A stretch of 64,000 nucleotides of DNA, from NCBI GenBank assembly GCA_012026655.1, contig JAAILG010000045.1:62001-126000 (forward strand). Direction: 5' to 3'. The stretch comes from Hydrolagus affinis. Taxonomy: Eukaryota. Both the position numbers and the translations under genes were made by a program. Position 1 is the first letter of the stretch. Each line of letters begins with the position of its first letter. Below, piece by piece: positions 17,051 to 58,690 of this stretch. The notes below the pieces were generated by a model, which saw only the letters and a program-made list of their open reading frames with translations, was not told the DNA's origin and made no database searches.

Positions 17051-17150
17051 NNNNNNNNNNNNNNNNNNNNNNNNNNNNNNNNNNNNNNNNNNNNNNNNNN
17101 NNNNNNNNNNNNNNNNNNNNNNNNNNNNNNNNNNNNNNNNNNNNNNNNNN
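17051..17150. other. Assembly gap (100 N)
   Basis: Run of 100 n; the right side enters an L2 3' region. Confidence 1.
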
Positions 17151-23009: not shown

Positions 23010-23247
23010 CAGAATATACTGTAAAATGAATTGATTGTATATTTTGTGGGTGAAACGCGGCAGCCAATTGCACACAGCAGTGTCCCACAAAGTCACACAG
23101 ACATGATTGAAAATGACCAATTTATTATTTTGTTTTGAGGGATTATTATCAGGTGTGTGGAGTAAGGAAACTTGCCCAAAGTCTGGAGTTAAACCCAGGT
23201 CTCTTGCTTATAAGGCAAGTGCTCTAACCAATGAGCTACAGGACTCC
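23010..23247 (-). mobile_element. Young Deu SINE lacking its tail
   Basis: Deu box through head ending gagctacaggactcc. An older SINE head follows at 23265-23422. Confidence 0.85.
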
Positions 23248-24214: not shown

Positions 24215-25009
24215 ACATTCTTAAAGGAATGTTAATAGGCTGTTATTGTTTATTTACTTTTTGATATGGTTTATAAAATGATGAACAGGAATTTTTTGAG
24301 CAGACAGTACAATTGTAATCCTAGAGTATGACTTTGGATGGCAGTGTCTGCCTATCACGTGTTTGCTCATTTCAGCAGACTGCTGCCAGCTTTCAAGACA
24401 GAAACAGCTTTTGCAATATTGAGCTGAAGAAACAGTCCAAAATCCACCATTTTATAGCACTCGCTACCTCCCTGAGTCAAAGCAAGCAGATCTAAACTGA
24501 TCCTCTGCTTGACCAAAGCATTCAAAGTCCGATTGGTTTGCTCCTTAATCTTAGATGCAGTCTCAGCATTATTCATCACTGAAATCTTCAACCCTACTAT
24601 TAACTATAATAATTCTATCAGGTAACAAACAACTGAAGCGAGAATTGATGGGTGTTTACAATGTGTGAGCCCTGCATTCGCATAACGAGATAAATATACC
24701 TGACTGCTATTTTGAACAATAATACGGGGCTTTACTCCAAATTTCTGGTTCTATAGACGTTTACAGTTGCTAACAAATCTCACTTTTGTACAGTATACAA
24801 GCCACCGGAGCTTGATCCGTCAATAAATAATCCATAGACTAATGAACATCTGCTTCCTCTGAAGGGCAGATGTTATGTTTCAGCTGCAGTCTTCAAATTA
24901 GCAATGCGGTTTCATACAAATTGTGTGTTTGATATAGAAACTACATATACTTGGGTAAAAGTTCAAAGCAAATGAATCAAAGAGAATCTGATTGATCACT
25001 AAACACCCC

Positions 25010-25095
25010 TTTATTCATTCTCAACAATCTGCACCCATAAAACACAAACATATCAAAGATACATGAAGTCTTTGTCTTTTTAAAATCTATTTATT
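25010..25095 (-). terminator. Polyadenylation signals of the SLRP gene
   Basis: AATAAA on the minus strand at 25095-25090 and 25015-25010, about 290 and 370 nt after the stop codon. A GU-rich stretch (tatgtttgtgtttt) follows the first. Confidence 0.6.
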
Positions 25096-25380
25096 ACATT
25101 ACAGTATCCTCAAGTTACTTCACGGAAATGTACATTTATACTCTTTGTTGCATTCACAAAATTAATATTCTTACAATAGTGTAGTGTAGCTTATGATAAA
25201 GAAAGAGAAGATCAAAGTACAGTAGTTTGTGTTCTGCCCTGAATGTACAATTGAATGACATTAGATCACGATAAGGGTACACTATCTCTTCATTGTGAGT
25301 CTGATGTTTAAAAGCTATGCCAGGATCTGAAGGGTGGCTTGAAATTTCCCTTATTAATTAGCAAAACAAATAGTAAAAGT

Positions 25381-26467
25381 TTAGTAAAAGTGAATCACCT
25401 GATAGCCCCTCAGGCACTTCAGTGAGTGAACATCGACCTGCCTGTGGTCAAGGTTATTTTTCTCAAGTCGCACAAGAATCAGACGACTTTCTGTTCGTCG
25501 CCGGCCACAGAAGGAGTCTGCGGGGATGAAATTGATCTGATTGTTGTGGAGATAGAGATACCACAGAGTCAGGGGTAGTTGCCGAGGGACGTGAGTGAGA
25601 TGATTGTAACTGATGTCTAAAAGTCGCAAACCCATCAACCTCCTGAAGGCACCAACGGCCACAACTGAGATTTTATTGTGCTCTAAGTGGACTTCCTCTA
25701 GCTTTGACATATTCCCTAATACATCCTTTCTTATTGAAGTGATGTTATTTTCCTGCAGGAGGAGGGTTTTTAAGGAGTGTGGGAGCAGTTTAGGGATAGA
25801 GGTGAGGAAATTCTTCCCTAAGTCCAAATGTTCAAGCTTAACCATATGCAAGAAAGCTTTGTCCCCAATTCCTTTACTATTGAGACGATTATTGTGGAGA
25901 TCAAGGTGTGTTAGTTCAGAGGAGTTTACAAACACACTATCTGGGATTGTTACAATCTGGTTTCCTTCCAGGTACAGCTCTCGGAGATTTGTGGTAAGAT
26001 TAGCAGGGACAACACTCAACAGATTATGATTCATTTTAATGATACGTAGGTTCTGCACCTGATTAAAGGCTCCTTCAGGAATGGATTTATCAGTTATGCT
26101 ATTATTGTTCAGGCTAATGCTTTTGAGACTCGTGCACTTTGCCAAGACATAGGCTGACATCTGACTGATGTTGTTTGAGTTTAGCATCAATTCTTCCAGA
26201 GTGGGTGGCAGATCTGCAGGAATACTGTGGAGGTGATTCTGGTCCATGTAGAGTCGGGTCAGCTTTTCCATGCCTTCCAAGGCACCTTCAATTCCAGCGT
26301 CTGTCAGCTTGTTGTTGTTGAGGACTATAAATTCCAGGGAGATGTACTCACTGAGGAGACCCATCTGGATCATTCCTATCTTGTTATTCATTAGGAAGAG
26401 GTTCCTGGTGTTGAAGGGAATTCCATACGGCATTTTATCAACTCCTTTATCTGAGCACTGGACTATT
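25381..26467 (-). CDS. SLRP (ECM2-like) gene, terminal coding exon: 14 leucine-rich repeats plus C-terminal Cys ear
   Basis: Lies within ORF 25381..26538. Acceptor tgtttactttcag|A ATA GTC CAG TGC. There are 14 LxxLxLxxNxI/L repeats in a ~24/25-26/21-aa super-repeat pattern. The C-terminus SFC...RLEKNNL...KCLRGYQVIHFY* has the two-Cys ear of canonical SLRPs. Confidence 0.95.
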
Positions 26468-26619
26468 CTGAAAGTAAACATCAAAACATTTAATACTAAA
26501 GAAAACATAAATATATACAGTATATACAAAAGATTCATTGTCTCATTGCACTTTTTTGATCTGTTTGAAGTTTGTACTTACAATTCAGATTCCAATATTT
26601 CCTCTGCAGAATAATATTG

Positions 26620-27000
26620 CGGTGGTCCCTACCAACCTGCCCACCCCCTCCATTTAGTGGGCTCCGGTCTGCTGATCGTCTCACTCCCAACACGCCCAAC
26701 CCACCCTACCATCGGTGGTCCGGCTTTCAGCCTCTCTGCCCCCAAACTAAAGAACTCCATCCCACAGTCCCTTCACCTCACTTCCTCCCTTGCCTTCTTC
26801 AAGGCTGATCTCAAGACACTCCTTTTCGATCGTGCCTTCAGCCGCCCTCCCACCTCTCTCCCTCCTTTCCCCCCTACCCTGCTCCTCTACCCTGGCCCTC
26901 CCCCATGTTCGCGTCCCGACCCCTTAATCTTCAGCACCCTGGGATGCCCTCCCGACATGAAAGGTGCTCTGTAAATGTAATTTTGTGGTTGTTGTTGTTT
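26620..27000 (+). mobile_element. L2 LINE 3' fragment in the last SLRP intron
   Basis: Translates PTIGGPAFSLSAPKLKNSIPQSLHLTSSLAFFKADLKTLLFDRAF; tail with (TTG)n. A further L2-type tail ending in (GATT)n lies at 27270-27385. Confidence 0.9.
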
Positions 27001-28174
27001 CACTCCCTAAAAAGGAACTAGTATTTGACTTGTCTTATTTGAAATACTTCAAATGTGTGCCGTCAAATTAAGATGGTTCAAGATGTAGAGTTAATAGATA
27101 CTAGATAAACTCTGAAAGTTCAAAAGGAATTGTCTAAACACATGTTAACAAGTATGAAAGCATAGTTCTAAAATGTTATTAGCTACATGAGTCTGCATAA
27201 TCACTGAATCCTACACTGAATGACATTTCGCCCATAAATATACAGTTGATTTTCCTACTCTTCGTCCTGCCCCAACCCCTCCCCCACTCTACTCTTGTCC
27301 CTACCTAACTGTAAAGCACTTTGGGACGTCCTTTCGATGTGAAAGGCGCTATATAAATGTAAGTTTTGATTGATTGATTGATTGATCTCGTCCAGTTACA
27401 TGTGTATATAATTTTTGGTTAGCTGGATCTCTAACAAATGTGAAAAACCATTGTCATGTTTAAGAGTCTCCAAACAAAACCGAGAGTTCCACATATACCT
27501 GGAAATTTTCCTTTCTCTGGAACACAATACATGCTCTTGCCCTGTAGAGATGAAGTGTGCTCATCTGATTTCGGAGAGTAATAGGCGCAGGTTGACAAGA
27601 GCCAAGTTGTGCGGATCCCAGTGTTTAACCATTTAAACAAATTTGCCTTTGTGAACAGTCTGGCCATCTTACCACTTTGTCATTGCAGTATTTTGTATCA
27701 TGTTAAATTGCTAGTCTCTGAGCACGGTTGTTTTTATTGAATTTCTCTCTCTACCCCTCTTCCTTCACATGCTCCTGATTCCAACTAAAACGTGGAGTTG
27801 ACTGGCATTTCCTCTCAAAAACAGAAAGAAAACCAAGAGTTATCCTCAGGCTGATTTTTGGTATTTACCAGCAGCAAATTCAGGAGGAAGAACTCCTGGC
27901 CTTGACTGAGTATGGTATAGAGAGGCCAGCGAGGGGAACGAGTGAAACTACTTGCCAAAGATATAATCCCAGTGTCAGGGAAAATAAATAAACATTACAG
28001 TAGTTCCTGTAAGAATAACAAATGTCTAGAACTATGTGTTGGCTGAAAATCAATCTCACAGTTTTGTTTACATTCACAAATATCTTGATCTATGCCCTCA
28101 TAATTTATGCCTTCAGTGAAAGTATTAAATTGAATTAAGGTTGGTTTTGATAGGTTGTAACCAGTGGACACAAG

Positions 28175-28420
28175 TATAAGATAGAATCTAGGGTGATCCA
28201 AAAGATAATTTAGGAGGAGGTACTTCATGCAGAGGAAAGTGAGACTGTAGAATTCATTGCTTAAAGCAATGGTTGAATCAACAAGGTTAGTTAAGGTCTG
28301 ACCAGCACTCTAAATAACTGGAGCAGCACCTCCTTACTTTTATATTCCAGACCCCTCATAATAAAGGTTGATGTCCCAATTGCATCTGCAAACTAGATTT
28401 TAAAGATCCTTTAACACTTC
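28175..28420. mobile_element. Degraded CR1 fragments
   Basis: aggaggaggtacttcatgcagagg..gtagaattcattgc resembles RRRYFTQRVVxxWNSLP on the plus strand. An antisense CR1-like piece lies at 28300-28420. Confidence 0.45.
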
Positions 28421-28464
28421 TATCTCTGTTTTCTCTGCACGATAAAGCTTGTCAAGTAGATTTT

Positions 28465-28682
28465 TTATAAAGTGGATTGACTGTATATTTGTGGGCAAAA
28501 AGTGGCAGCCAATTGCACGCAGCAATGTGTTACAAACAGTCGTGGATTGAAAGAACCGATTTACTATTGTTTTTTTGGGGGATTATTATCAGGCATGTGG
28601 AGTAAGGAAACTTGCCCAAGCTTTCGCCCTGCCTGGGCAGGTCTCTCGCTTGTAAGGCGGGTGTTCTAACCTCTGCGCTACA
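28465..28682 (-). mobile_element. Young Deu SINE, tail-less
   Basis: Deu box, ggagtaaggaaacttgcccaag, head ctcgcttgtaaggcgggtgttctaacc. Confidence 0.85.
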
Positions 28683-29799
28683 TACAACATTTCAAAGTTC
28701 AGCACACAATCGCAGCCTAAGGTTTAAAATGGGTTAACTGGTGAATCCTAGCTTGTGCGCTGTTGTTTACAAACAGAGCTTGATAGCTGTACTTTAATCG
28801 CACATTAGTTCCTGGGGCCACTGTCGAGAAACAGAGAAACTATTGTTGAAAAATCTCCCCACAGCTCGTAGAGAAATCGTGAAAGCGGAGATTGCCAAGA
28901 CGACCTGTGCCAGAAATAAATGATTGTGTGTGGCTGAAATAGGGGACTGACAGTCCCAGTAGTTTACTGAACAAGTTTTTGCCAAAGTGCGGCAGAACAA
29001 ATAATTCACAAAGACCACTTGTGAGTACAAGCTCCAACTCATGAATAGGTTATTTTTCAGTAAACCACCAAGCCTCGGTCAACCTACTGTATATCTGTTG
29101 GACATGTGCGCTTTAATAACTTCTCACTAGCATCTCTCACTTCAGGCAAGTTTCACAGCAGGAGGTGTGGAGAAAGACAATGTCTTGTTGGGACCTAGTC
29201 CTGTTATATTCACTGTATGAACCTCAGGCTATGTTTTGTTGATACAGGATATATTAAGCAATTTAGCCTTAAAAAAATCATAATATTACACTGCATGACA
29301 TGCAGACATCAAATTATCTTTTCCAGAAGCATTAATGTGATTTCTGTTTGAATCAGCTAAACGTTCAAGCACAATTTACCCGTCTTTATGTATTAGTATA
29401 TATCCTAAAATACTTCTTTTGTTGTTGATTTTCTCTCCTCCTCCATTCCCAAAAGGACTAATTATATTCAATGGTCCAATTCCATTAGCATTGGTGTCTA
29501 AACAAATGGCCTGAGCCAAGGTAGTGCGTGTTGGCAGATTATTTAACCATTGGATAGATTAACATCTTGGAGAGCATCACAAGTGTCATGGTCAAACTGT
29601 AGAGTGAGTGAGCGGGGAAGAAGAGAGTTGCTAGTAGGCACAGTTGTAGAGTTTGGTTTTCAGATGATTTTTGAAAACAAGAGTGGGAGAGATGGTGGGT
29701 TGAGGGAGTGAGTTCTAGCGGTGGGGTTGAAGGCTTGCTACTGATATATGGAGCAACAGGCTCGCACCAGAAGAAATAAACAGGAGAGTGAGGGTTGAG

Positions 29800-30720
29800 A
29801 TTACTTGGGTTGGGGGACACAGGGGCATAAATAGATTTGTAGGTGAGAGTGAGGATCCATGGAGATAGGAAGCCAGTGTAATCTGACGAGGATTCGGCAT
29901 TGTGAAGTTTTTTGCGTACAGTATAAGGATATAGGTGGAATCTTGGATTATTGGTGCTTGTGGATGGTGGATCTGGAGAGACCTGTGAGAAGGATATTTA
30001 AGCATCAGGTCTGGAGGTGACAAAGGCAAGAATCAGGATTTCAGCAGGGTTGGGTGTGAGATAGAGATGGAGCTGGTGATGTAGTGAAAATGTGAAAAGG
30101 TGGTCTTGGTCATAGACTGGATCTGAAGGAGGAAAGGTATTTGAGGATCTAAGCACAGTTGTGCACTGATTCAGTGAATCAGAGAAAAGTGTGGAAAGGC
30201 TTAGGAAGTTACAGCCAGAAACAAAGAGGAGTTGGCAGGAGCCAGTGAGAATGGCTTCTGTCTTGTCCCACTTTTAGCTGAAGAAAGTTCAGGCTCATTC
30301 AGGAGATGATGTTTCGCTGCAAGGAGGTCAGGACATCAGTAGACCTGAAACCAAAGGTAGAAGTAGATTTGTGTTATCTGTGTACGTGCGGAAAATAGCC
30401 CCATGTTTGCAGATGATCTCACCAAGAGGGAGCAGGTAGATGAAGACAAGCACGGGACTAAAGAGACCTGGGGTACACTATATATGCCCTGTGTGATACA
30501 AGAGGAAAAGCCATGAGAGGAAACAAAGTGCAAGACATGGGCCCAACAGGATTGGAACCAGGAAAGTAGAGGTACTTCCCATGGAAGTAGATGAGAGAGG
30601 CGATCAAGGAAGATAGAGCGATTGACTGTATCAAAGGCAGCAGAGATCAAGCTGAGGGAAGGTGGCATAAACATTCCTGGTCTCAAAGTCAGAACACATC
30701 ATTTGACATTTGGAACCAGT
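29800..30720 (-). mobile_element. Old L2 LINE fragment
   Basis: Translates LISAAFDTVNRSIFLDRLS..LSWFQS..HFVSSHGFSS (RT domain), heavily degraded. Confidence 0.75.
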
Positions 30721-30745
30721 AGTAATCTATCAAAGAAAACCGTAC

Positions 30746-31625
30746 CTTCCATAACAAGCACACTCCGGTGGGCAATAATAATCTTCGAAATAAGGAAACA
30801 CTGTTGCCTCGACTCTTCTATTGTTCTCTGGTCTTTGAATTTTCTTCTTTTTTTGACTCTTTTTTTGTGCCTGGATTGGTTTCACACTAGGTTGGGATTT
30901 CTTGAGTTTTGATTTCAGTTTAGAGGACAATTGTTTCCTAGGCTTCTTGCGTTTCTTTGGGACTTCTGTTCCTTTGCCCTGTTTGAGAGGTTTTGAGATA
31001 ACATTTGTTTTGGTCTTTCTTCCCGTGATCTTGAGGTTTTCATTGATAGTATCATTCTTCAGAGGCTTGGGGACTGAGAAAACCATCTTTTCTGGATTAA
31101 GAGCCAAATTCTTCTTCTTTTTCTTGAGTGGCTTGCTAGTTACTGTAGCATTGCTGATGTTCTGGGAGGAGATGGAAGCCAAGATGATTGTATTGTTCTC
31201 AGATGGCTGTTGTGTGGGTATTAGATTACTGCTCGCTGGAAGCTTCTCTGTCGCAATGCCTTCTAAATCAACAGAGGACTGAATGATGCGAATTGTCGCT
31301 GGCAAAGTAGGGGGTGGTTTCATGATAACACTTGTATTACTCGAAAACAGGGGAATTATAGTAGCTTTATTCTGACTTGAAGCATTGGGGCTTGCTATTG
31401 GAGGTGCGGAAACACTGATTGGGTCAACTGGTTCTGCTGTGGGATTGCCTGAAACAAGTCCTTTACCAACTACCTTCTCGTTTAGGGAAGTAGTAAAAGA
31501 ATGTGTAGGAACAGCTGTTACTTGAAGATTATCCACTTTGGCTTCTTGAGACTTGGTAACTGTTTCTGGGGTATTTAAAGATGTGGATATCAAATTAGTT
31601 GGCTCCATTGTTATTTTTTCTGTAC
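30746..31625 (-). CDS. SLRP (ECM2-like) gene, 880-bp exon: mucin-like S/T/P region, Lys-rich basic tract, start of N-terminal Cys cluster
   Basis: Lies within ORF 30730..31791. Acceptor tttcctctcctctttcag|GT ACA GAA; donor TAT GGA AG|gtacgg. Ends ...FPYFEDYYCPPECACYG; the phase-2 end joins the phase-2 acceptor at 26467 (AG|A = Arg), completing CPPECACYGRIVQC. Confidence 0.9.
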
Positions 31626-31724
31626 CTGAAAGAGGAGAGGAAAATGTAAATATAGGTGTGACACCATAGAAATAAAATAAAGCAGTATAATTTTCCCTAA
31701 TCTTTGAGTTAGACTCATAACATG

Positions 31725-31885
31725 TTCCTTGTAATGCTTCAGACTTGAGGGAGAAGGAAATTGTATGCGATTGGGATAGGGAGAAGGGCAAAGGATGGAT
31801 GGAGGCTTATGAGGTGTTTAAACACCAGCATTGATTAGTTGGGCCAAAAGCCTATTCCCTTGCTGTACAGTCTATGTAATTCTAA
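31725..31885 (+). mobile_element. CR1 3' fragment
   Basis: ggaggcttatgaggtgtttaaacaccagcattgattagttgggccaaaagcctattcccttgctgtacagtctatgtaattcta. Confidence 0.65.
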
Positions 31886-32865
31886 ATTATTTTTCAAATT
31901 TCAAAGTTTGCTAATATGATAGTAAAATCACTTGGACTTCAGGCTTGCAGAAATTCTCTAAAATTATACCAATAGCAAATGTGCAATCAAATGCTGTATT
32001 ATTGATCTTGCTATTTCATTAAAAGTGGTTTTAATCGCTTATTTTGTAGTGAATATTGGTAGATCCGGGTAAAGCTGGTTCTGATGTACAAATAAAAAAT
32101 TAACACAGGTATATAGGTATGTGTAGAACTAGCAAAGGGTGGTGTGAATGGTAACACAGATTAAAACTGCTACTTATCTCTGTCTCTCTTATGCACCCTC
32201 AATTGCTAATTTTGTCAAGAATCTACCTTCATCTTGAAGCTGACCACACAGTCCATTGACATATTCAGGGAATGACAACGATTGCGTTCACTGAACTTGG
32301 AGAGTGAAGACAAAATACAATATAACTGTGTGTTTGTATTGTATTATAAAATGCATTTTGAGGTGGTTGACTTGTTTAATTGATCTGCTACTGCAGTTTC
32401 TTTGTCCATGATCCATTCACATTTGTCCTCATGACTCCTGTTTGAGATATTCATTACAAGGCAACATATAGTGTTCTTAAACTAAACACCCTGCATTTCC
32501 TATTTATTGTAACAAAATTATTTAATCGTAACACATTATTGACTAACCAGAAAGTGTGCCTAAAGGGGTCCTTAAAAAACATTTACAGGTTTGGGATGAA
32601 ACATAAGTATTTCATGCTTTTCAATCTGAAAACACTTACAATTGACTCTAAAGGTTGGCACTGCCAGCGGTATATGCCTCCCGTCGTTGATTCCATCACT
32701 CCACAGGAGTTGCTGTTCTTTTCCACTATTAAAATGATGGCAAATACTTTCCTGTTTGCTTAACTAAAATGGCCAGCTATTAATTATACTGTAGTTTGTT
32801 TTGGCCTTAGCAATAAAGGGATATCCATGTTGGAAACATAAGTTGGTAAACAAGTATTCCAAGGC

Positions 32866-33150
32866 TTGGTCATTTCAATCCATGACTGTTTGTGGGACAC
32901 TGCTGTGCGCAATTGGCTGCCACGTTTCAAACACAAATATACAGTACAATCAAATCACTTTAAAGTATATTCTGTGAACTGCTTTGAGATGTCTAGAACA
33001 TGTGAAAAGTTCTATATTAAATACAAGGATTATTCGTATTTTTTTTGTGAAAGACCAGTGGAGTGGGACTAGTTGGATAGCTCTTTCAAAAAGTCAGCAG
33101 AGCCACAATGGGATGAAGACCTTTCTCTGCTGTAAGTTTCTATGATTTTC
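32866..33150 (+). mobile_element. 5'-truncated Deu SINE (32866-33035) followed by a CR1 3' end (33055-33150)
   Basis: Deu box and tail, then ggagtgggactagttggatagctctttcaaaaagtcagcagagccacaatggg..ctgctgtaagtttctatgatt. Confidence 0.8.
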
Positions 33151-33645
33151 TGGACAGGTGATGGAGAGTTATATTCAAACATCTTTCTCTTTCAAGCACA
33201 AATCAGTCTTCTGTACATTTTCGGTTATTTGAGAAATCCAGTTTTCAAAATGACAATAGAATTTTTTCGTTCAGAAGGAGAGCAAAGTTCTCTCTCATTT
33301 GCTCAAACAATCCGTGTTGAAACACAGAGAGCACTCCTAATAAATCAAGTGTTTTTAATCCTCTGAGCTGACCCCCCACTTCAGCCACAATAATACTTCT
33401 CTGGATTTGATTGCCAATCTATTAACAACTTGTAAGTATTAATCTGCTGAAAGTCAGTGACTACTTAAAGATCATTAAGCTGATCCAAACGTGTTTCACA
33501 TTAGACCCTTCCAACTGATAGAGAGGTGAAAGTCATCTATCATTTTAGACTTGGTTTGAGGTGAAACAATTCCCATCCTTAAAGTCCTTTAGTTCCATCT
33601 TTAAAGTAACTGAATGTTTCAGCATGCTTAAGTCCTGGGAGCAAC

Positions 33646-33965
33646 AATAATAATAATCCTTGAATTTGATATTGCGTTTTTCACATCTTCCAGATGTCTC
33701 AAATCGCTTCACAGAATATACTGTCAAGTGAATTGACAGTATGTTCCTGGGTGAAACGCAGCAGCCAATTGCGCACAGCAATATCCCACAAACAGTCGTG
33801 GATTGAAATGACCAATTTTTATGATAGTGTTTTTTTTTGGCGGGGTTATTATTAGGTGTGTGGAGTACGGAAACTTGCCCAAGGTTTCGCCCTGATGTGC
33901 CTGGATTCGAACACAGGTCTCACGCTTGTAAGGTAAGTGCTCTAACGACTGAGCTACAGGACTCC
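33646..33965 (-). mobile_element. Young Deu SINE, full length
   Basis: Head GGAGTCCTGTAGCTCAGTCGTTAGAGCACTTACCTTACAAGCGTGAGACCTGTGTTCGAATCC, Deu box, tail. Confidence 0.9.
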
Positions 33966-34998
33966 AGTGACTAACAGAGGAATACATAGAAATGCAACAC
34001 ATAGAAATGGAAAAAATGGTCAAAAGAAAACCCAGAAATCAATTTGCAAGTAGCATGGAGAGTGATGGGAAAACAATCAACAGTGAAAATTAGATAGGAC
34101 ATTGGGAATGGGTTGTTTTAATATTGTACGGTGATTTATATATTTTCCTCAAACATAATGTGTAGGAAAATGAAAAACTATTTGCAGGTAAACTATCACA
34201 TATATTAAAAAGGAAGGATAGAGCTTATTCTGAGAGCATACGATTTTCTATATATTCTTTCAATTAGTCCATGTTTCCTTAAAGTACAAAAATAGCACTT
34301 GAATTGCAGTTAATAACTTGACACAAGCTATTTAATGGTAGAAGGATTTAGCTGTGTGTGGCAGCATAATTAATGACAAGAATATTTCACATTTGAGGCT
34401 AGCTATCTGTACATAGAAAGACAGATACTTCCTAATGTATTGAATAACTGTTGGTCATTTAAATCCAGCCAACTCAATCAGACCTTATCCCAGTGAGCTG
34501 TTAAACTCAATCTTAACCAAACTAGAAATGAGCTTTACTATTTTCAGGGCTAGAAGTGCTTTAAAATTATAATTAGCTCATTGAGTTGTGTTAAATTTTC
34601 TATTTATTACTGAGTTAGAAGGGGTGAAACCCTGTATGATTCATGTTTGGCCCGTTGTTACTGTGAATTTCCATGCTTCTTAGCTAAATTAATTCAAGCA
34701 TATTTACCCTAGACTCTAAGGCATAGAGACTGTTGAATGGATTAGATTGGACTGTAACTCCAAATAATAGATGTGTGATGATCAAAATAGTCATTTCACA
34801 AGTAAGAGCAGCAAACTATTCCCAGATTGTAGCATTATAACGATCACTCTTTTTCTTATGTAGACTATCTTTGTTTAAATTGTTCATCGATGGGCTCATC
34901 CGGAATGGGAAATTACAGAAGGGAGCAGTGATGCACTTCTATGTCTGATGTAATGTTTTGAAGCCTATGTCTGCTGAACTGTGTTTGTTTAATTGATT

Positions 34999-35495
34999 AA
35001 AAAAAAACACAAAATGCTACAGTTGCTGGAAATCTGAAACAAAAACAGAAGTTGCTGGGGAAACTCAGCAGGTCAAGCAGCATCCATGGAGAAAGGAAAA
35101 AGAGTCAACGTTTCGGGTCTAAAACCCTTCGTCAGAACTGGGGCTTGTTTGGAGGGAGAGGTTTCTTAAGGATGTTAAAGTGGGAGAGGCAGGACATGGA
35201 AGACAAAGGAAACAAAGAAGACAAAGGAAAAGGGAAAAAGAGTGTGTTAACTGATGGGTTGAATATGTATGAACAACTTCAGGGGAGAAACAGAAGGGGG
35301 TGGGTTTAAACGAAACTTTGTCTTCTTTGTGTTCCATGTCCTCCTCTCCCTCTTTAACGTCCTTAAGAAACCTCTCCCTCCAAACAAGCCCCAGTTCTGA
35401 CGAAGGGTTGTAGACCCAAAACGTTGACTCTTTTTCCTTTCTCCAAGGATGCTGCCTGACCTGCTGAGTTTCCCCAGCAACTTCTGTTTTTGTTT
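34999..35495. mobile_element. Penelope-like element remnant: inverted pseudo-LTR pair with hammerhead motifs and a 17-bp flanking direct repeat
   Basis: Arms 35037-35207 and 35316-35495 are near-identical reverse complements. The sequence ctgacgaagggt..acccgaaacgttgactc..gatgctgcctgacctgctgagtttccccagc is typical of chondrichthyan Penelope termini. Flanks are tgtttgtttaattgatt (34982-34998) and tgtttgtttgattgatt (35491-35507). Confidence 0.8.
35102..35139 (-). ncRNA. Minimal hammerhead ribozyme motif (Penelope type)
   Basis: Minus strand: agtt-CTGACGA-a-GGGT-tttag-ACCC-GAAA-CGT-T-gact. It has the CUGANGA and GAAA cores, a 4-bp stem II, a palindromic ACGT stem III and an agtt/gact stem I. Confidence 0.6.
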
Positions 35496-36089
35496 GTTTG
35501 ATTGATTGTCACTTTGTATTGCTATTATGGCAATTCAAATGATACATTTATACTTGGAAGAAAATGGTGTTTAGCATTAACAGATTGAATGCATAATATT
35601 TATGACTTAGAAGGAATGATAGAAAACAAACCCATGTTAACATTCAAAGTGTTAAATAATTATTAGAAATGAAACTCTTCAGTAGTAAAGTTCCTGTAGA
35701 TAATCACACAAACTTGAATAAACTGGTCAACAGCATTCAAGATCGTGATTTTAAATGAATGGTTTTTAGAACAGTGACATTGTTTGAAATGATCGTTAGT
35801 TTAGACTTAACGAAAGAAGTACAGTCTACAAAGCAATCTGCATCTTGTGACATTCTGCAATACTGATATTAAATTCATACAAGAAAATGGAGATGCTTAA
35901 GGGAGCATCTAAACTACACATTACATCAAGAAATTGTACTGGCTAATGAAAACAGCCTGAAGTGTTGGACTTCAAATTCTATCTATGCTTTCTGACATAT
36001 TTATATGCGCAATAAACACTAAATAAATGTACAACACAGGAACAAGTTGAGTATTAAATATCCACTGTCCAGTTCTAAATTCTACTCAC

Positions 36090-36162
36090 TAGTGTGTGGC
36101 AAGCTGGCTGAGGTATTCAGAAGCAAGGTACCCAAGATTATTGCCCAAGCGAAACTCTTCAT
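36090..36162 (-). CDS. SLRP (ECM2-like) gene, signal-peptide coding exon (exon spans 36167-36090)
   Basis: Minus strand reads gtcttgatttatag|GCCAAATG AAG AGT TTC GCT TGG ... CAC ACT A|gtgagt = MKSFAWAIILGTLLLNTSASLPHT. This is a typical signal peptide (basic n-region, hydrophobic core, T-S-A cleavage motif). The strong donor is phase 1 and matches the phase-1 acceptor at 31625 (A|GT = Ser). Too short for the ORF track. Confidence 0.85.
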
Positions 36163-36319
36163 TTGGCCTATAAATCAAGACACACAACAAATTACTTTAA
36201 ACATAACGGCACAGTTTGCGAGAACCACAACTATTCTATCTTTCTTATTGTTCGAACACATGCAGCAAAACAAAATGCTAAACAGTATCAACAATGAGAC
36301 GGTTTAATGGCAGGCCTAC

Positions 36320-36500
36320 CTTTCCAGTTCATTTTTCTTGTTTAGGTCTGAGTCTATGTCACTGAATTCATCTGAAATGCTTTGCCATGTATGAAGAGGG
36401 ATAATGATGTACTGGAGCAGGTTCCCTGTGCTGCACTGGAGTATACAGTATTTGATCTCAGTCCATAGCCCAACCACCACTGGTATATGCGGTCTGTCAA
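36320..36500 (-). other. Probable upstream exon (mostly 5' UTR) of the SLRP gene; 5' boundary uncertain
   Basis: Donor GGAAAG|gtaggc at 36320/36319 gives a 152-bp intron to the acceptor at 36168/36167. ATG at 36332 is in frame (MNWK G|Q MKSF...). An alternative donor CGCAAG|gtaaag lies near 36628. Confidence 0.5.
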
Positions 36501-36518
36501 TGACCCAAACACCTCTGG

Positions 36519-36524
36519 TATATA
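36519..36524 (-). promoter_or_regulatory. Candidate TATA-like element for the SLRP gene
   Basis: TATATA about 200 bp upstream of the 36320 donor, in a repeat-poor interval. Motif only. Confidence 0.25.
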
Positions 36525-39097
36525 TGGACCCAGGCATCACTAATCAAACATGGTAAATCTTGGGATATGTCATAAATATTGTTTTTTTTCTCTATTATTA
36601 TGCTCTGTGTCAAATTGGAATCTTTACCTTGCGTTTTTCACACACAAATAATGAAAGGGCAAAGATTTGCTGCTCCTCTGAAGAAGGTCACAAAAGGTTG
36701 TGGAATAAACAAGAATGATGTTACATTCTGCAAGTAGAGAGCCTTACACAGACAGCAAGGTGGCTGCACACTGATGTTTCATGACTAGGGCTTGCCTTTG
36801 CTCCACATATTTAGCTATTTAAACACTGAGGTCCATACTTAGACTTTTGGTCACTGCAGTCCCATTGGCTTCTCATTTCTGTATTTTTTTTTCTAATTTG
36901 AGAATATTTTTCAACCTCAGGTAAATGTATCATTTTCTGACTATTCCTCCTTAAACAGCAGCACTGCTAAAATGTAGCCATCTTTACGAAAAGATGGTAC
37001 CTTCTGGAATTGATTCTGGTGATTTAGAGAGCACAAAACACTCAATAGATTTACACTGCGACGCTGAAGGGCAAACCTCGTGTTTTCCTGTATGATGCTG
37101 GTGAATCAAACTTCGTCAAATGCTCAGAAAATGTCAAAGGTTAGTGCTCTAATTTTGTCCAGAGAAAAGCTCAATTCTGGAGCAGGAAACGGAGAGCATC
37201 GCAAGGGCATCACTGGAGCTCTGTATCTGCAGCTTCTCATTCCCTATTCCTTATTTGAGCTTTGACATGATCAACAATCTGGAGTTGGCAGGGTTGCTTT
37301 GATCCCTTCTCAATAGCCTCAATGTTTGCCGCTGTTACAGACTGACAGACATTTGAGAGAGATAAGTAAAGCCTGCAGTTAAATGCTCACTGGGGATTTT
37401 AAAAATTCAACATTTTAATCCATCTCCTCCTGTGGTGGAATTCTTTCCATTTTCCTCCCCCATTACATTTGAATTGGCCTTGATTTTTAGTTTCCTGCAC
37501 CGCAGGATCTATTATTGTGTAATCAGTGAGCAATACATCCAGCACTCTTCATCATTTCATTTGTTTTCCTGAAATTGCAGCACTAGGATAACATTGTGGT
37601 AATTCTCCAATTGTTGGTAAATGTATGGATCATGGTGTAAAGCATTCTTATTTTGCAAACTTTCAATTTGGGATTATGATGAAAAATTCCTGCAAAAGAA
37701 TCAAACTATCAGTTAACATTTTGCCAACTATGGGGAATTCTCATGTCTTCACCGCCCCATTTGTGCTGGGATTCTGGTACAGTATTAGTAAAACTCTTGT
37801 TGGTTGATTAAAAACAGTATCAAGTCAGTGCCTTGGACCATTCTCTCCCCTTCACAGCTAAAAGGAGACTTTTTGGAGATACACAGTTTTAGTGAAAGAT
37901 CAAAGGAGAGAACCAAATAAACCCTTCAAAACATAATTCGGATCCAAAGATATTTCTTCTGTGGATTAAGGTTTCAAATGCACCAGTGTAATTTGGGGAA
38001 CTGCGGGTTTTTCAGTTGCTACAACTAAATACAAAAATGGAAGCATTATGTGGTAGTGTAATAAAATGTGCTAATGTTAAGCATGTGAAGAACAATTACC
38101 TTAATGGAAGTCATTATGCTTACCAAATTGTCTACCTTGTTAAAATAACAGGGTCACTGATAATTTGCTGTACCACAGAGTGTCTTCCTATGTACACTTG
38201 CCACATGCACAGTATCGTGCATGTTCCTCAGGGCCCTGTCCTCGGTCCCCTCCTCTTCAACCACTACATGTTCCCCTTTGGTGATCAAATATCATTAACA
38301 CTAAGTCAGAAATTGGTAAGCAGTGACTTACCGGATGTTCATGGCACTATTGCTTTTGGAGCTTTTACAAAACCAGTTCCACTGGATTTAACTTATTATG
38401 GAGAAAATGCAAGGATTGTTATCCCTAACCTCAATATAAGGACAACAGACACAAGTGGAAAGTGTAGGGTTTCATAAGGAAGCTAGATGCATTCTACAGT
38501 ATATTTATTACTCCATGTATTTCTTTTTGAGAGGATAGTGTGATTTTTTTTAATTAAAAAAATTGCAACCAACACATACTTGTAAATATGCCATTCTGTT
38601 TACAGACTGGGTTGATGTTGATTTATTTTGACATTAAGAGCTTAAATTGTCAAAATGGAGGAAGCAAATTTAAGATGTACATAAAAAAGTGACAGATTTT
38701 TTATTAGGTATGTACTTGAACTTGATCAGTACGTTGCAGGAATTTTTAATGTAATTTGTTTGACATCTGGAATGTAGGAATAGCCTCTGGTTGTTTCTTT
38801 TCTGTAGATACTGGTGCCCGTACCATTTTCTACTCTTGATGGCTGTCTAAATGGATGACCCCGGGACACAATTTTAACAGTTTAGACAAGTTTGGGAAAG
38901 CTGCATTTTATTGTCTGCCACAGCCATCGGCTAAATTCTTTGCAATTACTGTTCTGATGAAAAGAGAGATTTTCTCTTAAGTTGTTTTTAAAGCCAGGGT
39001 GACAGGGTTGCGGGGTAAAGTCAATTGTTTAAAGCTTGTTTAAATACCCAATTCTTCCAAACGGTGTTGTTAATATTTAACATTCAGGGTCCACAAG

Positions 39098-40455
39098 ACA
39101 ACAACAACAACAAAATTGCACTTATATTGCGCCTTTCATGTCGGGAGGACGACCCAAAGCGCTGAACAGTCAGGTCGGGACCCGAGCGGGGTGGTGGGGG
39201 GCGGGGAGAGTTGGAGTAGGGGGAAGGGGAAGGAGAGTGGGAGAGGGGGAAGAGTTAGTGGGGCAGCCAAAGGCGTGGTTGAAGAGGAAGGTCTTGAGAC
39301 CGGCCTTGAAGAAGGAAAGGGAGGAAGCGAGGCGGAGGGGCTGCGGGATGGAGTTCCGTAGTGTGGGAGCAGAGAGGCTGAAAGCCCGGCCGCCAATGGT
39401 TGGGCAGTGAGGGCGGTGGACATGGATCAGGCCTGAGTCTGCTGAACGGAGGGTGCGGGCAGGCTGATAGGGAGACAGTAGGTCAGAGAGATAGGCAGGG
39501 ATAAGGCTGTGAATGGCCTTGAAAGTGAGAAGGATCTTGAATTCAATCCTCTGGGTGACGGGGAGCCAGTGGAGACGGGCGAGGGTGGGAGTGATGAGGT
39601 CGCGAAGCCTGGTACGGGAGAATACACGAGCTGCAGAATTTGGAATGATCTGCAGCCTGTGAAGGGAGGAGCTGGGGAGACCAATGAAGAGATAGTTCCC
39701 AGTTGAGCCTGGAAGTGATAAAGGCGTGGATGAGAGTTTTGGCGGCGTGGGGGGTGAGGTAGTGGTGGAGTCTGGCAATATTACAGAGGTGATGGAAGGC
39801 TGTGCCGGTCATGGAGTAGATGTGGGGGAGGAAGGATAGTTCGGGGTCGAACAAGACGCCCAGATTCCTGATTGGCTTTGAGAGGTGGAGAGAGCAGCCT
39901 TGAATGCTGACGTTGTCAGTGCCTGAGGTACAGAGGCACTGACGTGAGCCAATCAGAAGGGCTTCTGTCTTGTTGACGTTGAGTTGTCAGAAATTTGCTC
40001 TTGTCCTGGACTCAATGTCGGACAGACACGCAGTCAGAACGCCAGTGGTCCTGGAATCGAGAGTTGACGTGGATAGGTAGAGTTGGGTGTCATCCGCATA
40101 CATGTGGAAATTTACCCCATGTCTGCGGATGATGTCGCCCAGGGGGAGAGTGTAGAGAGTGAAGAGCAGGGGGCCAGAGACAGAGCCCTGGGGAATGCAT
40201 GTGACTGTGAGGGGGCTGGAGGAGAAGCCGTTGAGGAGACGAAGTGAAGGCGGTGGGAGAGATAGGACTGAAACCATTCGAGGACAGAGCCTTGCAGGTT
40301 GAGGAGGGAGGCGAGGCGGTGGAGGAGGATACCGTGGTCCACGGTATCGAAAGCAGCGGATAGGTCGAGGAGGACGAGGAGGCAGAGGGAGCCCTGGTCA
40401 CAGATGGTCAGGATGTCGTTTGTGACCTTGACCAGGGCAGTTTCCATGCTGTGAC
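39098..40455 (-). mobile_element. L2 LINE, 1.35 kb 5'-truncated, best-preserved copy
   Basis: Frameshifted RT/ORF2: [75 protein letters not shown]. Stem-loop and (TTG)n tail. Confidence 0.95.
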
Positions 40456-41523
40456 GCAACCTTTCACTTGGATGATCTGAATATAGATATCGATGGGGTG
40501 GGGATAATAGAGCGAACAATTCAGCCAGGCTGACGCTAAGATATTTTATTTATGATTGCAAGTCAACTCAAGTACAAGGACTATAACTTGGCACTACACA
40601 GCAATGGCCATGGGTATGTTACTATCTTGCCACCTATTGACTGCAGTGTTATTCCTTGTCTTTCCCCACTGGCACAGACACTCGCAGAATCTGATCTAAT
40701 GGGAAAGCACTTCAGCAGGTACAGATGTCTCAAACAAACACCGTGACCTGAAAGATGATCAACTACTGCATATTTCTAGCAATCTAGAAATTTGCAAAAT
40801 ATCAAACCAGTAGCTGAGCACAGAACCCCAAAGATTGCTTCATATTCACTCATCAATAAGTGCAACCAAGACAAACAAAAACAATAGGTTGAGGGCTGAA
40901 GTGGGGAAGCTGTTGGAGGAGACGGGTCAGAGAAGGGCAGAATTTGGGCTGAAACTGAAATAAGGTTAAAGTCCTGAATGAAGCAAGTTACTTTAACTGA
41001 TGCACAATGAGCTCTTGACCAGAATACATACTGTTTCTGCTGCTTTCTTTATCCCTATCCTTTTAGCATGTCCCTTGGGCTGAAGTGATATTAAAAACTG
41101 CGGAATTTTAACCAATGTCAATAACTAACCGTTGTTTCAGGCAATTCCAACAGAACATAATTGATTTCATGGCCATGTGTAGAAAGAATAACGATGTGGA
41201 ATTTAAGACCAACTTTTGACATTCTCAAATGCCACAGTTGCTTATGCACCTTGGCAAAACTACTGAAAGTAACCACTGCCGTTTTACCTCCTAATGTGGC
41301 CTTTGATGTGGCAGCTCAAATCCAAGATGACCAAATTGCAATGGAGAAGCAGAATCCTGGACTCGAACCTGAGTAATTTCTTCCAGCTGACTCCACTGTA
41401 ATGAGGCCTAATACAGACTGTCTGGTGCCCCAAAATAAATGGCAAACCTCACAGTAAATACCTTGGCTAAACAAACACGGACATGTGTGCAAAGTACCCA
41501 TGAATCACTTTTTTAAACTGTTG

Positions 41524-55617: not shown

Positions 55618-57108
55618 CCTTGGGCAAGTTTCCTTACTCTACAAGTCTGGTAATATTTCCTTGAAAAATATTTAAATCACAACTGTTTGTGGGACTCTGC
55701 TGTGTGCAATTGGCTGCTGTGTTTCGTCCAGAAATATACAGTCAATTCACTTTACAGCATATTCTGTGAAGCGCTTTGAAACATCTGGAAGATGTGAAAA
55801 GCTCTATATAAATGCTTCTGTGCCCACAACACAGAAATGCTCTGGTCAAGGTCACAAATGATATCCGGACCATTTGTGCCCAGGACTCCCTCTGCCTCCT
55901 CAACCTATCTGCTGCCTTTGACACCGTGGACAATCCTCCTCCACCTCCTCTTCTCCCACCTCAACCTTCAAGGATCTGTCCTTGACTGATTCAGGTCCTA
56001 TATTACACACCGTCTCCACTTTGTGTCCGCCAACGGCTTTTCTTCCAGCCCCCGCACCATGTCATGTGGTTTTCCTCAGGGCTCTGTCCTCTGTATCCTC
56101 ACCTTCACCCTCTACATGCTCCCCTTCGGTGTCAGCATCCGCAGACATGGGGTAAATTTCCACATGTACGCAGATGACACCAACTCTATCTCTCTGCTTC
56201 CACCCTCAACTTCAGGACTACCGGCATTCCTGACTACCTGCCTATCCGACATCAATTCCTGGACAAGGGATAACTTTCTCCAGCAACACATCCACAAGAC
56301 TGAGGCCCTTCTGATTGGCTTGAGTTAGCTCCTCCATACCTCAGGCACACGCTCCACCTCACAGGAATTAATCAGTCAGGAACCTGGGTGTCTTGTTTCA
56401 ACCTGAACTGTCCTTTCTCCCCCATATCCGTGCCATGACTAGCACTGCCTTCCACCACCTCTATAACATAACCAGACTCCGCCACTCTGGGATGCTGAAA
56501 CCCTCAACCATTGCATTCGTCACATCAAGGCTTGACTATGGAAACTCCCTCCTCGTCGACCTTCCCAGCTCTTCCCTTCACAAGCTGCAGATCATACAAA
56601 ACTCTGCAGTTCTTGTCCTCTCCCAAACCAGGCTCCACGATCCCATCACTTCCACGCTTGCCCGGCTCCATTGGCTCCCCATTCCTTAGAGGATTGAGTT
56701 CAACATCCTCACTTTCAAGGCCACCCACAGCCTTGCCCCTTCCTATCTCTCCAACCTGTTGACTCCCTACTGACTCCTCCATTCAGCAGGCTCCAGCCTG
56801 CTCCATATCTCCAGCCCAACTCACCCTATCATTGATGAATGGGCTTTCAGTCTCTCAGCCCCCAACTCCATCCCAAAGTCCCTATGACTGACTTCCTCCC
56901 TTGCCTCCTTCAAGGCCAGTCTGAAGACCCTCCTTTTCAATCGTGCCTTCAGCCGCCCTCCCACCTCTCTCCCTCCCCCGACCCTGCCACTCCCCCATGC
57001 TTGGGTCCCAAGCCCTGACAGTTCAGAGCCTTGGGATGTCCTCCCGACATGAAAGGCGCTCTATAAATGTGATGTTGTTGTATCAAACACAAGGATTATT
57101 ATTATTAT
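55618..57108 (+). mobile_element. Deu SINE (55618-55813 plus 57081-57108) with a ~1.27-kb L2 (55814-57080) inserted in its tail
   Basis: SINE ...gtgaaaagctctatataaatgc| then L2 RT (HNTEMLWSRSQ frameshifted, [30 protein letters not shown]) ending aaaggcgctctataaatgtgatgttgttg| then tatcaaacacaaggattattatt. Confidence 0.9.
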
Positions 57109-58339: not shown

Positions 58340-58690
58340 CTCCCTCAATCCCTTTGCTTCACCCCCCCTCCTTTTCCATCTTCGGGTCGCACCTGAAGAC
58401 CTTTCTGCTCACCTATGGTCACCTTCCCCCTCCCCCTGGCTTGGTCCCGGGTTCCACTATTGTGAAGCGCTCTGAGATGCAGTTTGGCATGGAGGGCACT
58501 ATATAAATGCAAGTTGTTTTTGTTGTTGTTTGATATAGCGCTTTTCACATCAGGAGGATATCCCTCATGGGATGTACTGTAAAATGTAGTGACTGTATTT
58601 TATGGGGAAAAGCTTCCACAGTGTCCTGTGAAATGCTTTGAGATGTTCAAGGCATAATGAGGCGTCGCATCAAATATGAGGATTTTTTTT
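58340..58690. mobile_element. L2 3' end (plus, 58340-58532) abutting SINE tail fragments
   Basis: gaagcgctctgagatgcagtttggcatggagggcactatataaatgcaagttgtttttgttgttgt|ttgatatagcgcttttcacatcagg. Confidence 0.7.

Follow-up and report, generated by a model that had tools for sequence, protein, structure and literature searches.

The window, that is, the whole 64-kb stretch of Hydrolagus affinis DNA analysed here, carries an SLRP gene on its minus strand, and raises the question of which SLRP this is and what its product does. The first-pass annotation had described a poorly characterised lineage that could not be placed, potentially relevant to the matrix of the cartilaginous skeleton. Rather, the gene is almost certainly an ordinary copy of one already known as Ecm2L, ECMZ and wu:fc23c09, the last of which, the database name of the gene, had been suggested correctly.

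The gene is real and the earlier model of it nearly right. Exons at 36162-36090, 31625-30746 and 26467-25381 of the minus strand (73 + 880 + 1087 nt) join through GT..AG introns of phases 1 and 2 into a stop-free frame of 679 aa, the length proposed, and the predicted junctions 36090>31625 and 30746>26467 are present in transcript-type contigs of a relative (runs X3 and X4). Runs X1-X4 are presumed RNA and come from a related organism, not H. affinis, that of X3 being ~90% alike. Contig 17 of X3 runs unbroken, in its own numbering, through 36475-36319, 36166-36088, 31623-30746 and 26467-25009, bridging all three introns; X4, from the same sample, has identical joints. The contig of X5 is unspliced across 35850-36700. 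The count of three exons did not hold, as four are capable of coding: an ATG at 36332, in an upstream exon ending at 36320, is spliced in frame to 36167 and gives a 685-aa form. Shark orthologue models open with a comparable short basic leader. The features are:

36320..36475, minus strand: upstream exon with in-frame ATG at 36332, adding 6 residues; joint 36319>36166 (GT..AG) in runs X3 and X4; the boundary at 36475 is an RNA contig end, not a mapped start site
36090..36167, minus strand: exon of 78 nt, phase 1-1, encoding the signal peptide and holding the second ATG (36162); covered by X2, X3 and X4 contigs
31138..31625, minus strand: S/T/P-rich stalk, predicted disordered; residues 25-187 of the 679-aa form, 163 aa, 38% S+T+P
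30793..31137, minus strand: polybasic Lys-rich tract, residues 188-302, 115 aa, 38 K/R versus 6 D/E; candidate glycosaminoglycan-binding segment
30746..30792, minus strand: YFEDYY aromatic/acidic motif, followed by cysteines 1-3 of the CX3CXCX6C N-cap, read from sequence
25381..26467, minus strand: last coding exon, with the fourth cap cysteine, 14 LRRs, LRRCE/ear and stop codon
25414..25566, minus strand: LRRCE motif/ear with ear cysteines C638 and C669; matches the relaxed pattern of Gil 2025, not the strict one
24992..25380, minus strand: 3' UTR, AATAAA at 25095 and 25015; X1-X4 contigs end at 25009 or 24992, and the limit given is that of contig ends, not a mapped cleavage site

As the 78-nt exon is phase 1-1, the frame would be kept if it were skipped, and an NCBI model (P0001, isoform X2) does skip it. 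Such a signal-peptide-less isoform may exist, but runs X2-X5, whose contigs drop rare forms, list no skipping joint or corresponding loose end; the loose contig end at this exon (X3, X4) runs on into the following exon.

The 679-aa translation recovers the domain order reported before, from the hydrophobic N-terminus (best 12-residue mean 2.38, by hydropathy only) through the S/T/P-rich and Lys-rich segments and YFEDYY to the cap, 14 LRRs and ear. The stalk carries sequons at 105, 121, 168, 180 and 183 and one Ser-Gly at 83; in total, seven sequons lie ahead of the cap, one of them within the signal peptide. The term "mucin-like" fits its S/T/P-rich, predicted disordered character but is generous. 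In the model of the Callorhinchus orthologue, the N-terminal half is disordered (pLDDT <50 over residues 1-289) and is followed by a confident LRR solenoid. Most of 35 orthologue models have a motif related to YFEDYY, F/Y-P-Y-F-x-D-x-Y, ahead of the cap. The cap itself comprises C309, C313, C315 and C322, and is split by intron 2, so that the LRR domain described as lying in one exon does so for the LRRs, the ear and the last cap cysteine, but not for the Cys cluster as a whole. The last exon matches Pfam LRR_8 (E 1.5e-46), and the 14 LRRs are borne out by consensus matches with a 21-24-26 rhythm; this is the ECM2-type count. Several canonical SLRPs of the catshark likewise match the relaxed but not the strict LRRCE pattern (Gil 2025, PMC11917481). 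The four-cysteine N-cap and the LRRCE with ear (relaxed pattern) are those of canonical SLRPs of classes I-III and A. The product is predicted to be a secreted, collagen-binding matrix protein, secretion being read from the hydropathy peak only and collagen binding from the family.

The identity of the gene follows from sequence and phylogeny. Its LRR exon is 93% identical, over the whole query, to Callorhinchus XP_007893641, which Table S1 of Gil 2025 lists as Ecm2L, Clade 1. In the tree, the window gene pairs with Callorhinchus (100/100) inside a 14-row orthologue clade (100/100) that includes the Gadus and Microcaecilia proteins filed as Ecm2L by Gil 2025, and that stands apart from ECM2/ECMX, class I, class II and the podocans. 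The tree was built under LG+G4 without a mixture model from trimmed domains, with partial class I and II rows and no BGN, class III, nephrocan, lamprey or Ciona rows, and carries a warning of long-branch attraction. The Gadus protein XP_030197185 unites the names, being Ecm2L in that Table S1 and Wu:fc23c09 in UniRef. Three papers, of 2008, 2018 and 2025, had already named the lineage and given it a place: as ECMZ of class A (Park 2008, PMC2637281), in Costa 2018 (PMC6293640), and as Ecm2L, Clade 1 of cluster C (Gil 2025). The gene is therefore not the unplaced lineage first supposed.

The deeper position is less sharply defined. Monophyly of Ecm2L with ECM2/ECMX, supported at 94.6/94 with 549 sequences in Gil 2025, is not in our best tree (AU p 0.159), and none of three placements is rejected by AU tests (p 0.16, 0.36, 0.46). 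Orthologues are present in bony fishes and amphibians. A profile search of 1.84 billion representatives returned mostly giant LRR proteins among the best 150 listed, 20 of which were looked up by name, and no human or other amniote orthologue is among the named matches. To that extent, the earlier description of an SLRP that has no human counterpart and is little studied in function stands, for a canonical SLRP. In the PDB, FLRT2, which is not an SLRP, tops both the sequence-class and the structure matches, as generic LRRs would lead one to expect, and neither sequence nor fold searches of the PDB tell the SLRP classes apart; the top ten of the structure search include osteomodulin, biglycan and decorin.

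The genomic setting agrees with this assignment. The gene heads an ecm2L-decorin-lumican cluster: on contig C45, all on the minus strand, it occupies 87381-98332, DCN starts at 58572 (G000:C45:58572) and LUM lies at 8671-6499. The statement that no other SLRP lies within ~25 kb is literally true, and none besides this gene was found inside the 64-kb window, but it misleads, as DCN starts 28.8 kb downstream of the stop codon, 3.4 kb beyond the window, with LUM next. In Callorhinchus, ecm2L and lum are ~64 kb apart and share their orientation, and fused ecm2L+DCN gene models occur in sturgeon and Channa. A search for the BTG family, for flanking synteny, gave five matches, none on contig C45; nine flanking stretches contained six frames of at least 150 aa, none recognisable, and the one scanned in Pfam had no match.

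The gene of Gil, Park and Costa shares with ours the place upstream of DCN, 14 LRRs (15 by Park's count) and sequons ahead of the LRRs. Gil 2025 gives catshark Ecm2L 14 LRRs and N-glycan sites, as here, and states 18 sequons versus our seven pre-cap ones, a species-level difference only; catshark ECM2 also has 14 LRRs. ECM2/ECMX and Ecm2L have in common a collinear domain of 14-15 LRRs (repeat register free of gaps of 10 or more in 3/3 comparisons), the 21-24-26 rhythm, LRRCE, a long N-terminal extension and the first position in an SLRP cluster. A basic pre-cap stretch is likewise seen in a snake ECMX-like protein (net +12). Repeat-for-repeat collinearity with ECM2 and the first cluster position are features of class A/Clade 1. 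In contrast, identity is 28-33% and the ECM2/ECMX cap is CX8C: CX3CXCX6C, previously listed as an ECM2 feature, occurs in none of five ECM2/ECMX-type proteins, nor in the ECM2 of this genome. ECM2 has a VWC domain and an acidic tract, neither found in Ecm2L. ECM2 proper was dismissed on this basis, as a Pfam scan of the second large exon gave no family, hence no VWC, and a separate VWC-bearing ECM2 gene exists in this genome (G000:C7379/C5006). That ECM2 has six introns in its LRR domain and Ecm2L none, a contrast that we did not find in print and that probably reflects intron loss.

The CX3CXCX6C cap and the ear repeat are shared with decorin, biglycan and asporin, the cap being seen in the DCN of this genome. 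These class I proteins have one 71-residue triplet fewer and a short N-terminus; DCN, the direct cluster neighbour, has seven coding exons, and the intron near the cap differs in position and phase. Narrow class I (DCN/BGN/ASPN, with a 12-LRR domain over many exons) was rejected, the domain here being 71 residues longer and in one exon. Podocan and podocan-like proteins (class V) are the closest non-orthologues by identity (32-38%) and share the 21-24-26 rhythm, but have ~20 LRRs, a CX3CXCX7C cap (6/6), no LRRCE match (3/3) and a separate clade; the database label is a misannotation. Nephrocan forms a separate clade in the tree of Gil 2025, and class II in ours, from partial rows. Within class II, PRELP resembles Ecm2L in having a basic segment before a capped LRR domain and most LRRs in one large exon, and differs in its clade, its shorter LRR domain and the class II intron before the ear.

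As to function, Gil 2025 reports catshark Ecm2L at 141-182 TPM at embryonic stages 22-26 (whole-embryo data), at 0.9-1.3 TPM in three adult skeletal tissues, with cartilage at ~1 TPM, and as low or unamplifiable in embryonic vertebrae. The orthologue is expressed, by in situ, in the notochord under Yap1/Wwtr1 control; notochord expression is reported from zebrafish only, the sole in situ report found. Since Ecm2L, ECMZ and wu:fc23c09 are one gene, the catshark pulse connects with the zebrafish notochord, a connection not made in the passages of the literature consulted. The published expression is thus early embryonic and notochordal, which speaks against the role in cartilaginous-skeleton matrix suggested at first.

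We consider the best explanation, and a rather probable one, to be an Ecm2L gene whose product would be an embryonic matrix glycoprotein binding collagen and heparan sulfate. PRELP binds heparan sulfate through its basic N-terminus and collagen through its LRRs (Iozzo and Schaefer, PMC4859157); heparan-sulfate binding is demonstrated for PRELP and for Ecm2L predicted by analogy. That Ecm2L works as a PRELP-like anchor between the two ligands we put at slightly short of even. The glycoprotein would be secreted with an N-glycosylated stalk, its solenoid would bind collagen fibrils, as expected from the family, and the lysine-rich tract, which is conserved among orthologues, may bind heparan-sulfate chains. 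Such dual binding, with notochord expression, would therefore make the product a transient anchor from the basement membrane to the collagen layer of the notochord sheath. No reports of binding, localisation or knockout were found in the literature for any Ecm2L.

A less likely reading, still to be taken seriously, is that the same gene encodes a soluble modulator of TGF-beta/BMP/Wnt or of neural-crest migration, the tract only retaining it on cell-surface heparan sulfate. Decorin and biglycan are described as modulating these pathways, the catshark pulse is short and embryonic, and Gil 2025 proposes a role in neural-crest migration and predicts an LRP5/6-type motif in catshark Ecm2L. This motif is, however, a permissive prediction common to many SLRPs, and the sole in situ report found shows notochord.

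It is improbable that the N-terminal half is a low-complexity spacer, with no specific ligand or cleaved off, leaving the LRR domain alone to regulate collagen fibrils. The predicted disordered stalk does vary from ~200 to 560 residues across orthologues and is acidic in several teleost models, and 9/21 teleost models fall below a tract net charge of +10, four being net acidic; one of these belongs to a species with two models, the longer of which has the tract. A charge of at least +10 is nevertheless found in all seven chondrichthyan and all seven non-teleost bony models and in 12 of 21 teleost ones, a conservation that we did not find in print. Throughout the range from chimaeras to salamanders and a caecilian, the basic block adjoins the cap even as the remainder of the stalk diverges, and the window protein has no R-x-x-R furin-type site. 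Speaking against heparan-sulfate binding, its strict heparin-binding patterns number one (XBBXBX) and none (XBBBXXBX). The original view of an unplaced lineage of adult cartilaginous-skeleton matrix, isolated in its genome, is hardly credible: the window lacks other SLRPs and the named matches lack an amniote orthologue, but the lineage has its published names, DCN and LUM share the contig, adult and vertebral expression is low, and orthologues occur in bony fishes and amphibians.

Returning to the anchor, we offer one broader conjecture, as a whole unlikely. Ecm2L may be a dedicated, Yap-driven embryonic notochord-sheath anchor of anamniote jawed vertebrates whose heparan-sulfate-binding lysine tract evolved independently of PRELP, whose ancestral LRR introns were all lost in one reverse-transcriptase-mediated event before the chimaera/bony fish split, and which amniotes discarded as their embryos came to depend less on a stiff notochord. 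Among class A genes, it would be the one in which the ancestral four-cysteine cap is best preserved.

As discovery, the locus carries little weight, the gene, cluster, LRR count, amniote loss and embryonic expression being already in print. What it adds is the union of the names Ecm2L, ECMZ and wu:fc23c09, a conserved polybasic tract as a cheap and direct handle on function, a tidy, small example of what is probably intron loss, and caution over database labels. The databases file its orthologues as podocan, asporin, decorin, lumican-like or ECM2.

The minus-strand gene in the window encodes the Hydrolagus copy of Ecm2L (also ECMZ or wu:fc23c09), and reconstruction of its splice frames places the coding exons as follows:

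36162-36090, minus strand, coding exon with the signal peptide (ATG at 36162)
31625-30746, minus strand, middle coding exon
26467-25381, minus strand, last coding exon, with the leucine-rich repeats (LRRs)

All introns are GT..AG with compatible phases and the 679-residue product has zero internal stops, as the first-pass annotation had proposed (three exons, ~679 residues); an upstream ATG at 36332, with an exon end at 36320 spliced in frame to 36167, gives 685 residues. The predicted order of parts is reproduced as well: a hydrophobic leader, 163 residues with 38% S+T+P, a Lys-rich region of 115 residues (38 K/R versus 6 D/E), YFEDYY, the cysteine cluster CX3CXCX6C that opens the LRR domain (the cap), 14 LRRs (periods 24, 25, 21, 24, 26, 21, 24, 26, 21, 24, 24, 21 and 28) and an ear with Cys638 and Cys669. 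The protein contains 13 N-x-S/T sequons, seven of them N-terminal to the cap, and one Ser-Gly. Pfam LRR families match the last exon and zero families the middle exon, and in the AlphaFold model of the Callorhinchus orthologue pLDDT stays <50 across almost the whole of residues 1-289 and exceeds 90 in most of the LRR domain. An aromatic/acidic motif between basic tract and cap, F/Y-P-Y-F-x-D-x-Y (window 30792-30775), is kept in orthologues and could be a tyrosine-sulfation site or a cap component.

The observation made in the window is correct, and the gene is already described, not a member of the unmatched lineage that had been supposed. The last exon is 93% identical over its full length to Callorhinchus milii XP_007893641, which Gil et al. 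2025 (PMC11917481) file under Ecm2L, Clade 1; identity is 62-73% to shark and ray proteins, 55-60% to those of coelacanth, lungfish, salamander, bichir, bowfin and paddlefish, and 45-49% to those of teleosts. In a 36-row tree, the window gene groups with Callorhinchus (100/100), nested in a 14-row orthologue clade (100/100). Orthologues carry differing database labels (wu:fc23c09, podocan(-like), asporin, decorin, lumican-like, ECM2), but Gadus XP_030197185 is Ecm2L in the Gil table and Wu:fc23c09 in UniRef, which ties these names and bears out the suggested match to wu:fc23c09. In the available portions of the literature, Park et al. 2008 (PMC2637281) give the name ECMZ to the ECM2-like gene that sits 5' of DCN in fishes, Costa et al. 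2018 (PMC6293640) report its occurrence from shark to coelacanth, and Gil 2025 (PMC11917481) describes 14 LRRs each in catshark Ecm2 and Ecm2L, many N-glycan sites ahead of the LRRs and loss of Ecm2L in amniotes.

Within the SLRP family of LRR matrix proteins, AU tests did not reject grouping of Ecm2L with ECM2/ECMX (p 0.159), class I (p 0.363) or podocan (p 0.457). The case for class A, which Park et al. 2008 (PMC2637281) proposed, is therefore made by the published tree, the cluster position and collinearity with ECM2/ECMX (zero gaps of at least 10 residues in 3/3 alignments), whereas DCN lacks one 71-residue triplet. The first-pass annotation had assigned the CX3CXCX6C signature to decorin and ECM2 alike, and this holds for decorin, with which Ecm2L shares all four cysteines and their spacing, but not for ECM2 and ECMX, which retain two of the four as CX8C (models P0033, P0035, P0040, P0042 and P0046; Hydrolagus L048:5440-5553). 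Giant Branchiostoma proteins (P0011, P0013, P0185) contain several capped LRR blocks and owe their high family scores to repeat number.

Contrary to the first impression, Ecm2L is not isolated from other SLRP genes, since the same strand of contig JAAILG010000045.1 (C45, of which the window is 62001-126000) carries:

C45:87381-98332, minus strand, Ecm2L (gene model)
C45:58572-41400, minus strand, decorin, seven coding exons (sequences L018, L022 and L023 cover decorin and lumican)
C45:58572-58375, minus strand, first coding exon of decorin (sequence match)
C45:8671-6499, minus strand, lumican (sequence match)

Decorin starts 28.8 kb past the Ecm2L stop codon, 3.4 kb beyond the window edge, and the first kilobases of the window may contain a non-coding first exon of decorin. 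Cluster C of Gil 2025 (PMC11917481, seen in part) begins with ecm2L, followed by dcn1, lum, kera and epyc, and in Callorhinchus ~64 kb separate lum from ecm2L in shared orientation. Automatic models fuse ecm2L with decorin in sturgeon (P0014) and Channa (P0199). A 100-base N run (assembly gap) lies between the two genes at window 17051-17150. For all Hydrolagus genes the paralogue names are presumptive, drawn from these matches, from the tree and from known features of the families. The other SLRP clusters are present in pieces: ECM2 is split across C7379:26192-29796 and C5006:13000-37183, ASPN-like and OMD-like genes lie on C5006, LUML-like, PRELP-like and one further class II-like gene on C973, and a KERA-like exon at C79:141582-142304.

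The LRR domain of Hydrolagus ECM2 (C7379, C5006), whose cap is CX8C, comprises seven exons and six introns, one spanning the contig break, and DCN has seven coding exons, in line with the many-exon LRR domains expected of these genes; none of their LRR-domain introns is present in Ecm2L. The near-cap intron of Ecm2L is in phase 2, four codons 5' of the last cap cysteine, whereas that of DCN is in phase 1, four codons 3' of it. Models P0075, P0078 and P0080 (48% identity) and bichir P0091 begin with intron-like residues exactly at the Ecm2L boundary, and because the first three extend from there to the C-terminus, these sequences suggest that bony fishes share the single LRR exon. Ciona SLRP1 has eight LRR-domain exons in the accessible text of Park 2008 (PMC2637281), which, on a comparison of exon numbers, makes intron loss in Ecm2L the simpler reading. 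A large LRR exon is common to Ecm2L and class II SLRPs, where one exon holds most LRRs (PMC4859157, in part); Hydrolagus lumican retains an intron ahead of the ear.

Splicing support comes from a single sample of a relative. Ecm2L sequence was absent from every run recorded as RNA, and support derives from four runs of related organism A (X1-X4), of guessed RNA status, with X3 and X4 sharing one sample. A 2593-nt X3 contig covers 36475-36319 (letters 1-157), 36166-36088 (158-236), 31623-30746 (237-1132) and 26467-25009 (1133-2589); because these blocks are consecutive in its letters, it bridges all three introns, including the predicted junctions 36090>31625 and 30746>26467. Contigs of X4 agree with these joints, X1 and X2 yielded pieces only, and an X5 contig is unspliced through 35850-36700. 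The signal-peptide exon (36167-36090; proteins P0001, P0065) is symmetric, phase 1-1, and is omitted from Callorhinchus NCBI isoform X2; a product without it would have no leader and would carry lysine runs resembling an NLS, and no skipping joint is among those listed for runs X2-X5. The older model XP_007893641 lacks the leader and ~39 residues of the basic tract.

Over the 62 residues that lie 70 to 9 positions ahead of the first cap cysteine, the window protein carries a net charge of +21; the value is at least +10 in all 7 chondrichthyan models, all 7 non-teleost bony models and 12 of the 21 from teleosts. Models whose N-terminus is truncated or whose cap is missing were left out (P0014, P0016, P0068, P0069, P0072, P0073, P0081, P0082, P0084, P0088, P0164, P0203, P0219, P0232 and short unnamed frames), as were further Callorhinchus and bichir models and cluster members. 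Model error accounts for some of the spread among teleosts, since two Alosa alosa models score -7 and +15. At the same position, 4/5 ECM2/ECMX-type proteins are acidic and a snake ECMX-like protein is basic. The main text of Gil 2025 (PMC11917481), as far as accessible, does not mention lysine, intron or exon, nor does that of Park 2008 (PMC2637281) mention basic or heparin; mostly open-access searches returned no paper on the basic tract or gene structure, which supplements may mention.

Ecm2L is of interest for its little-studied function, its conserved basic tract and a probable intron loss. The notochord sheath consists of a basement membrane and collagen layers. In the parts of the sources available, zebrafish wu:fc23c09 is expressed notochord-wide at 18 somites and is down 8.3-fold in yap1;wwtr1 mutants (PMC5773182), with a table entry only in PMC13268175, and PRELP binds heparan sulfate via its basic N-terminus and collagen via its LRRs, and possibly links the basement membrane to the collagen matrix (PMC4859157). 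Joining this expression with the binding modes of PRELP, the likeliest mechanism is that Ecm2L acts as a transient, secreted, N-glycosylated anchor of the notochord sheath, whose lysine tract would bind heparan sulfate and whose LRRs would bind collagen; the steps past sequence and expression are inference. Rival readings make Ecm2L a growth-factor or neural-crest modulator, or its N-terminal half a ligand-free spacer.

The window also contains reverse transcriptase (RVT_1) fragments of LINE-type repeats at 40112-40549 (minus strand) and 55990-56328 (plus strand), and the Ecm2L introns hold many further repeat copies. Rfam tRNA-family matches at 1611-1682 and 23183-23238 (both minus strand) are probably the heads of tRNA-derived SINEs.
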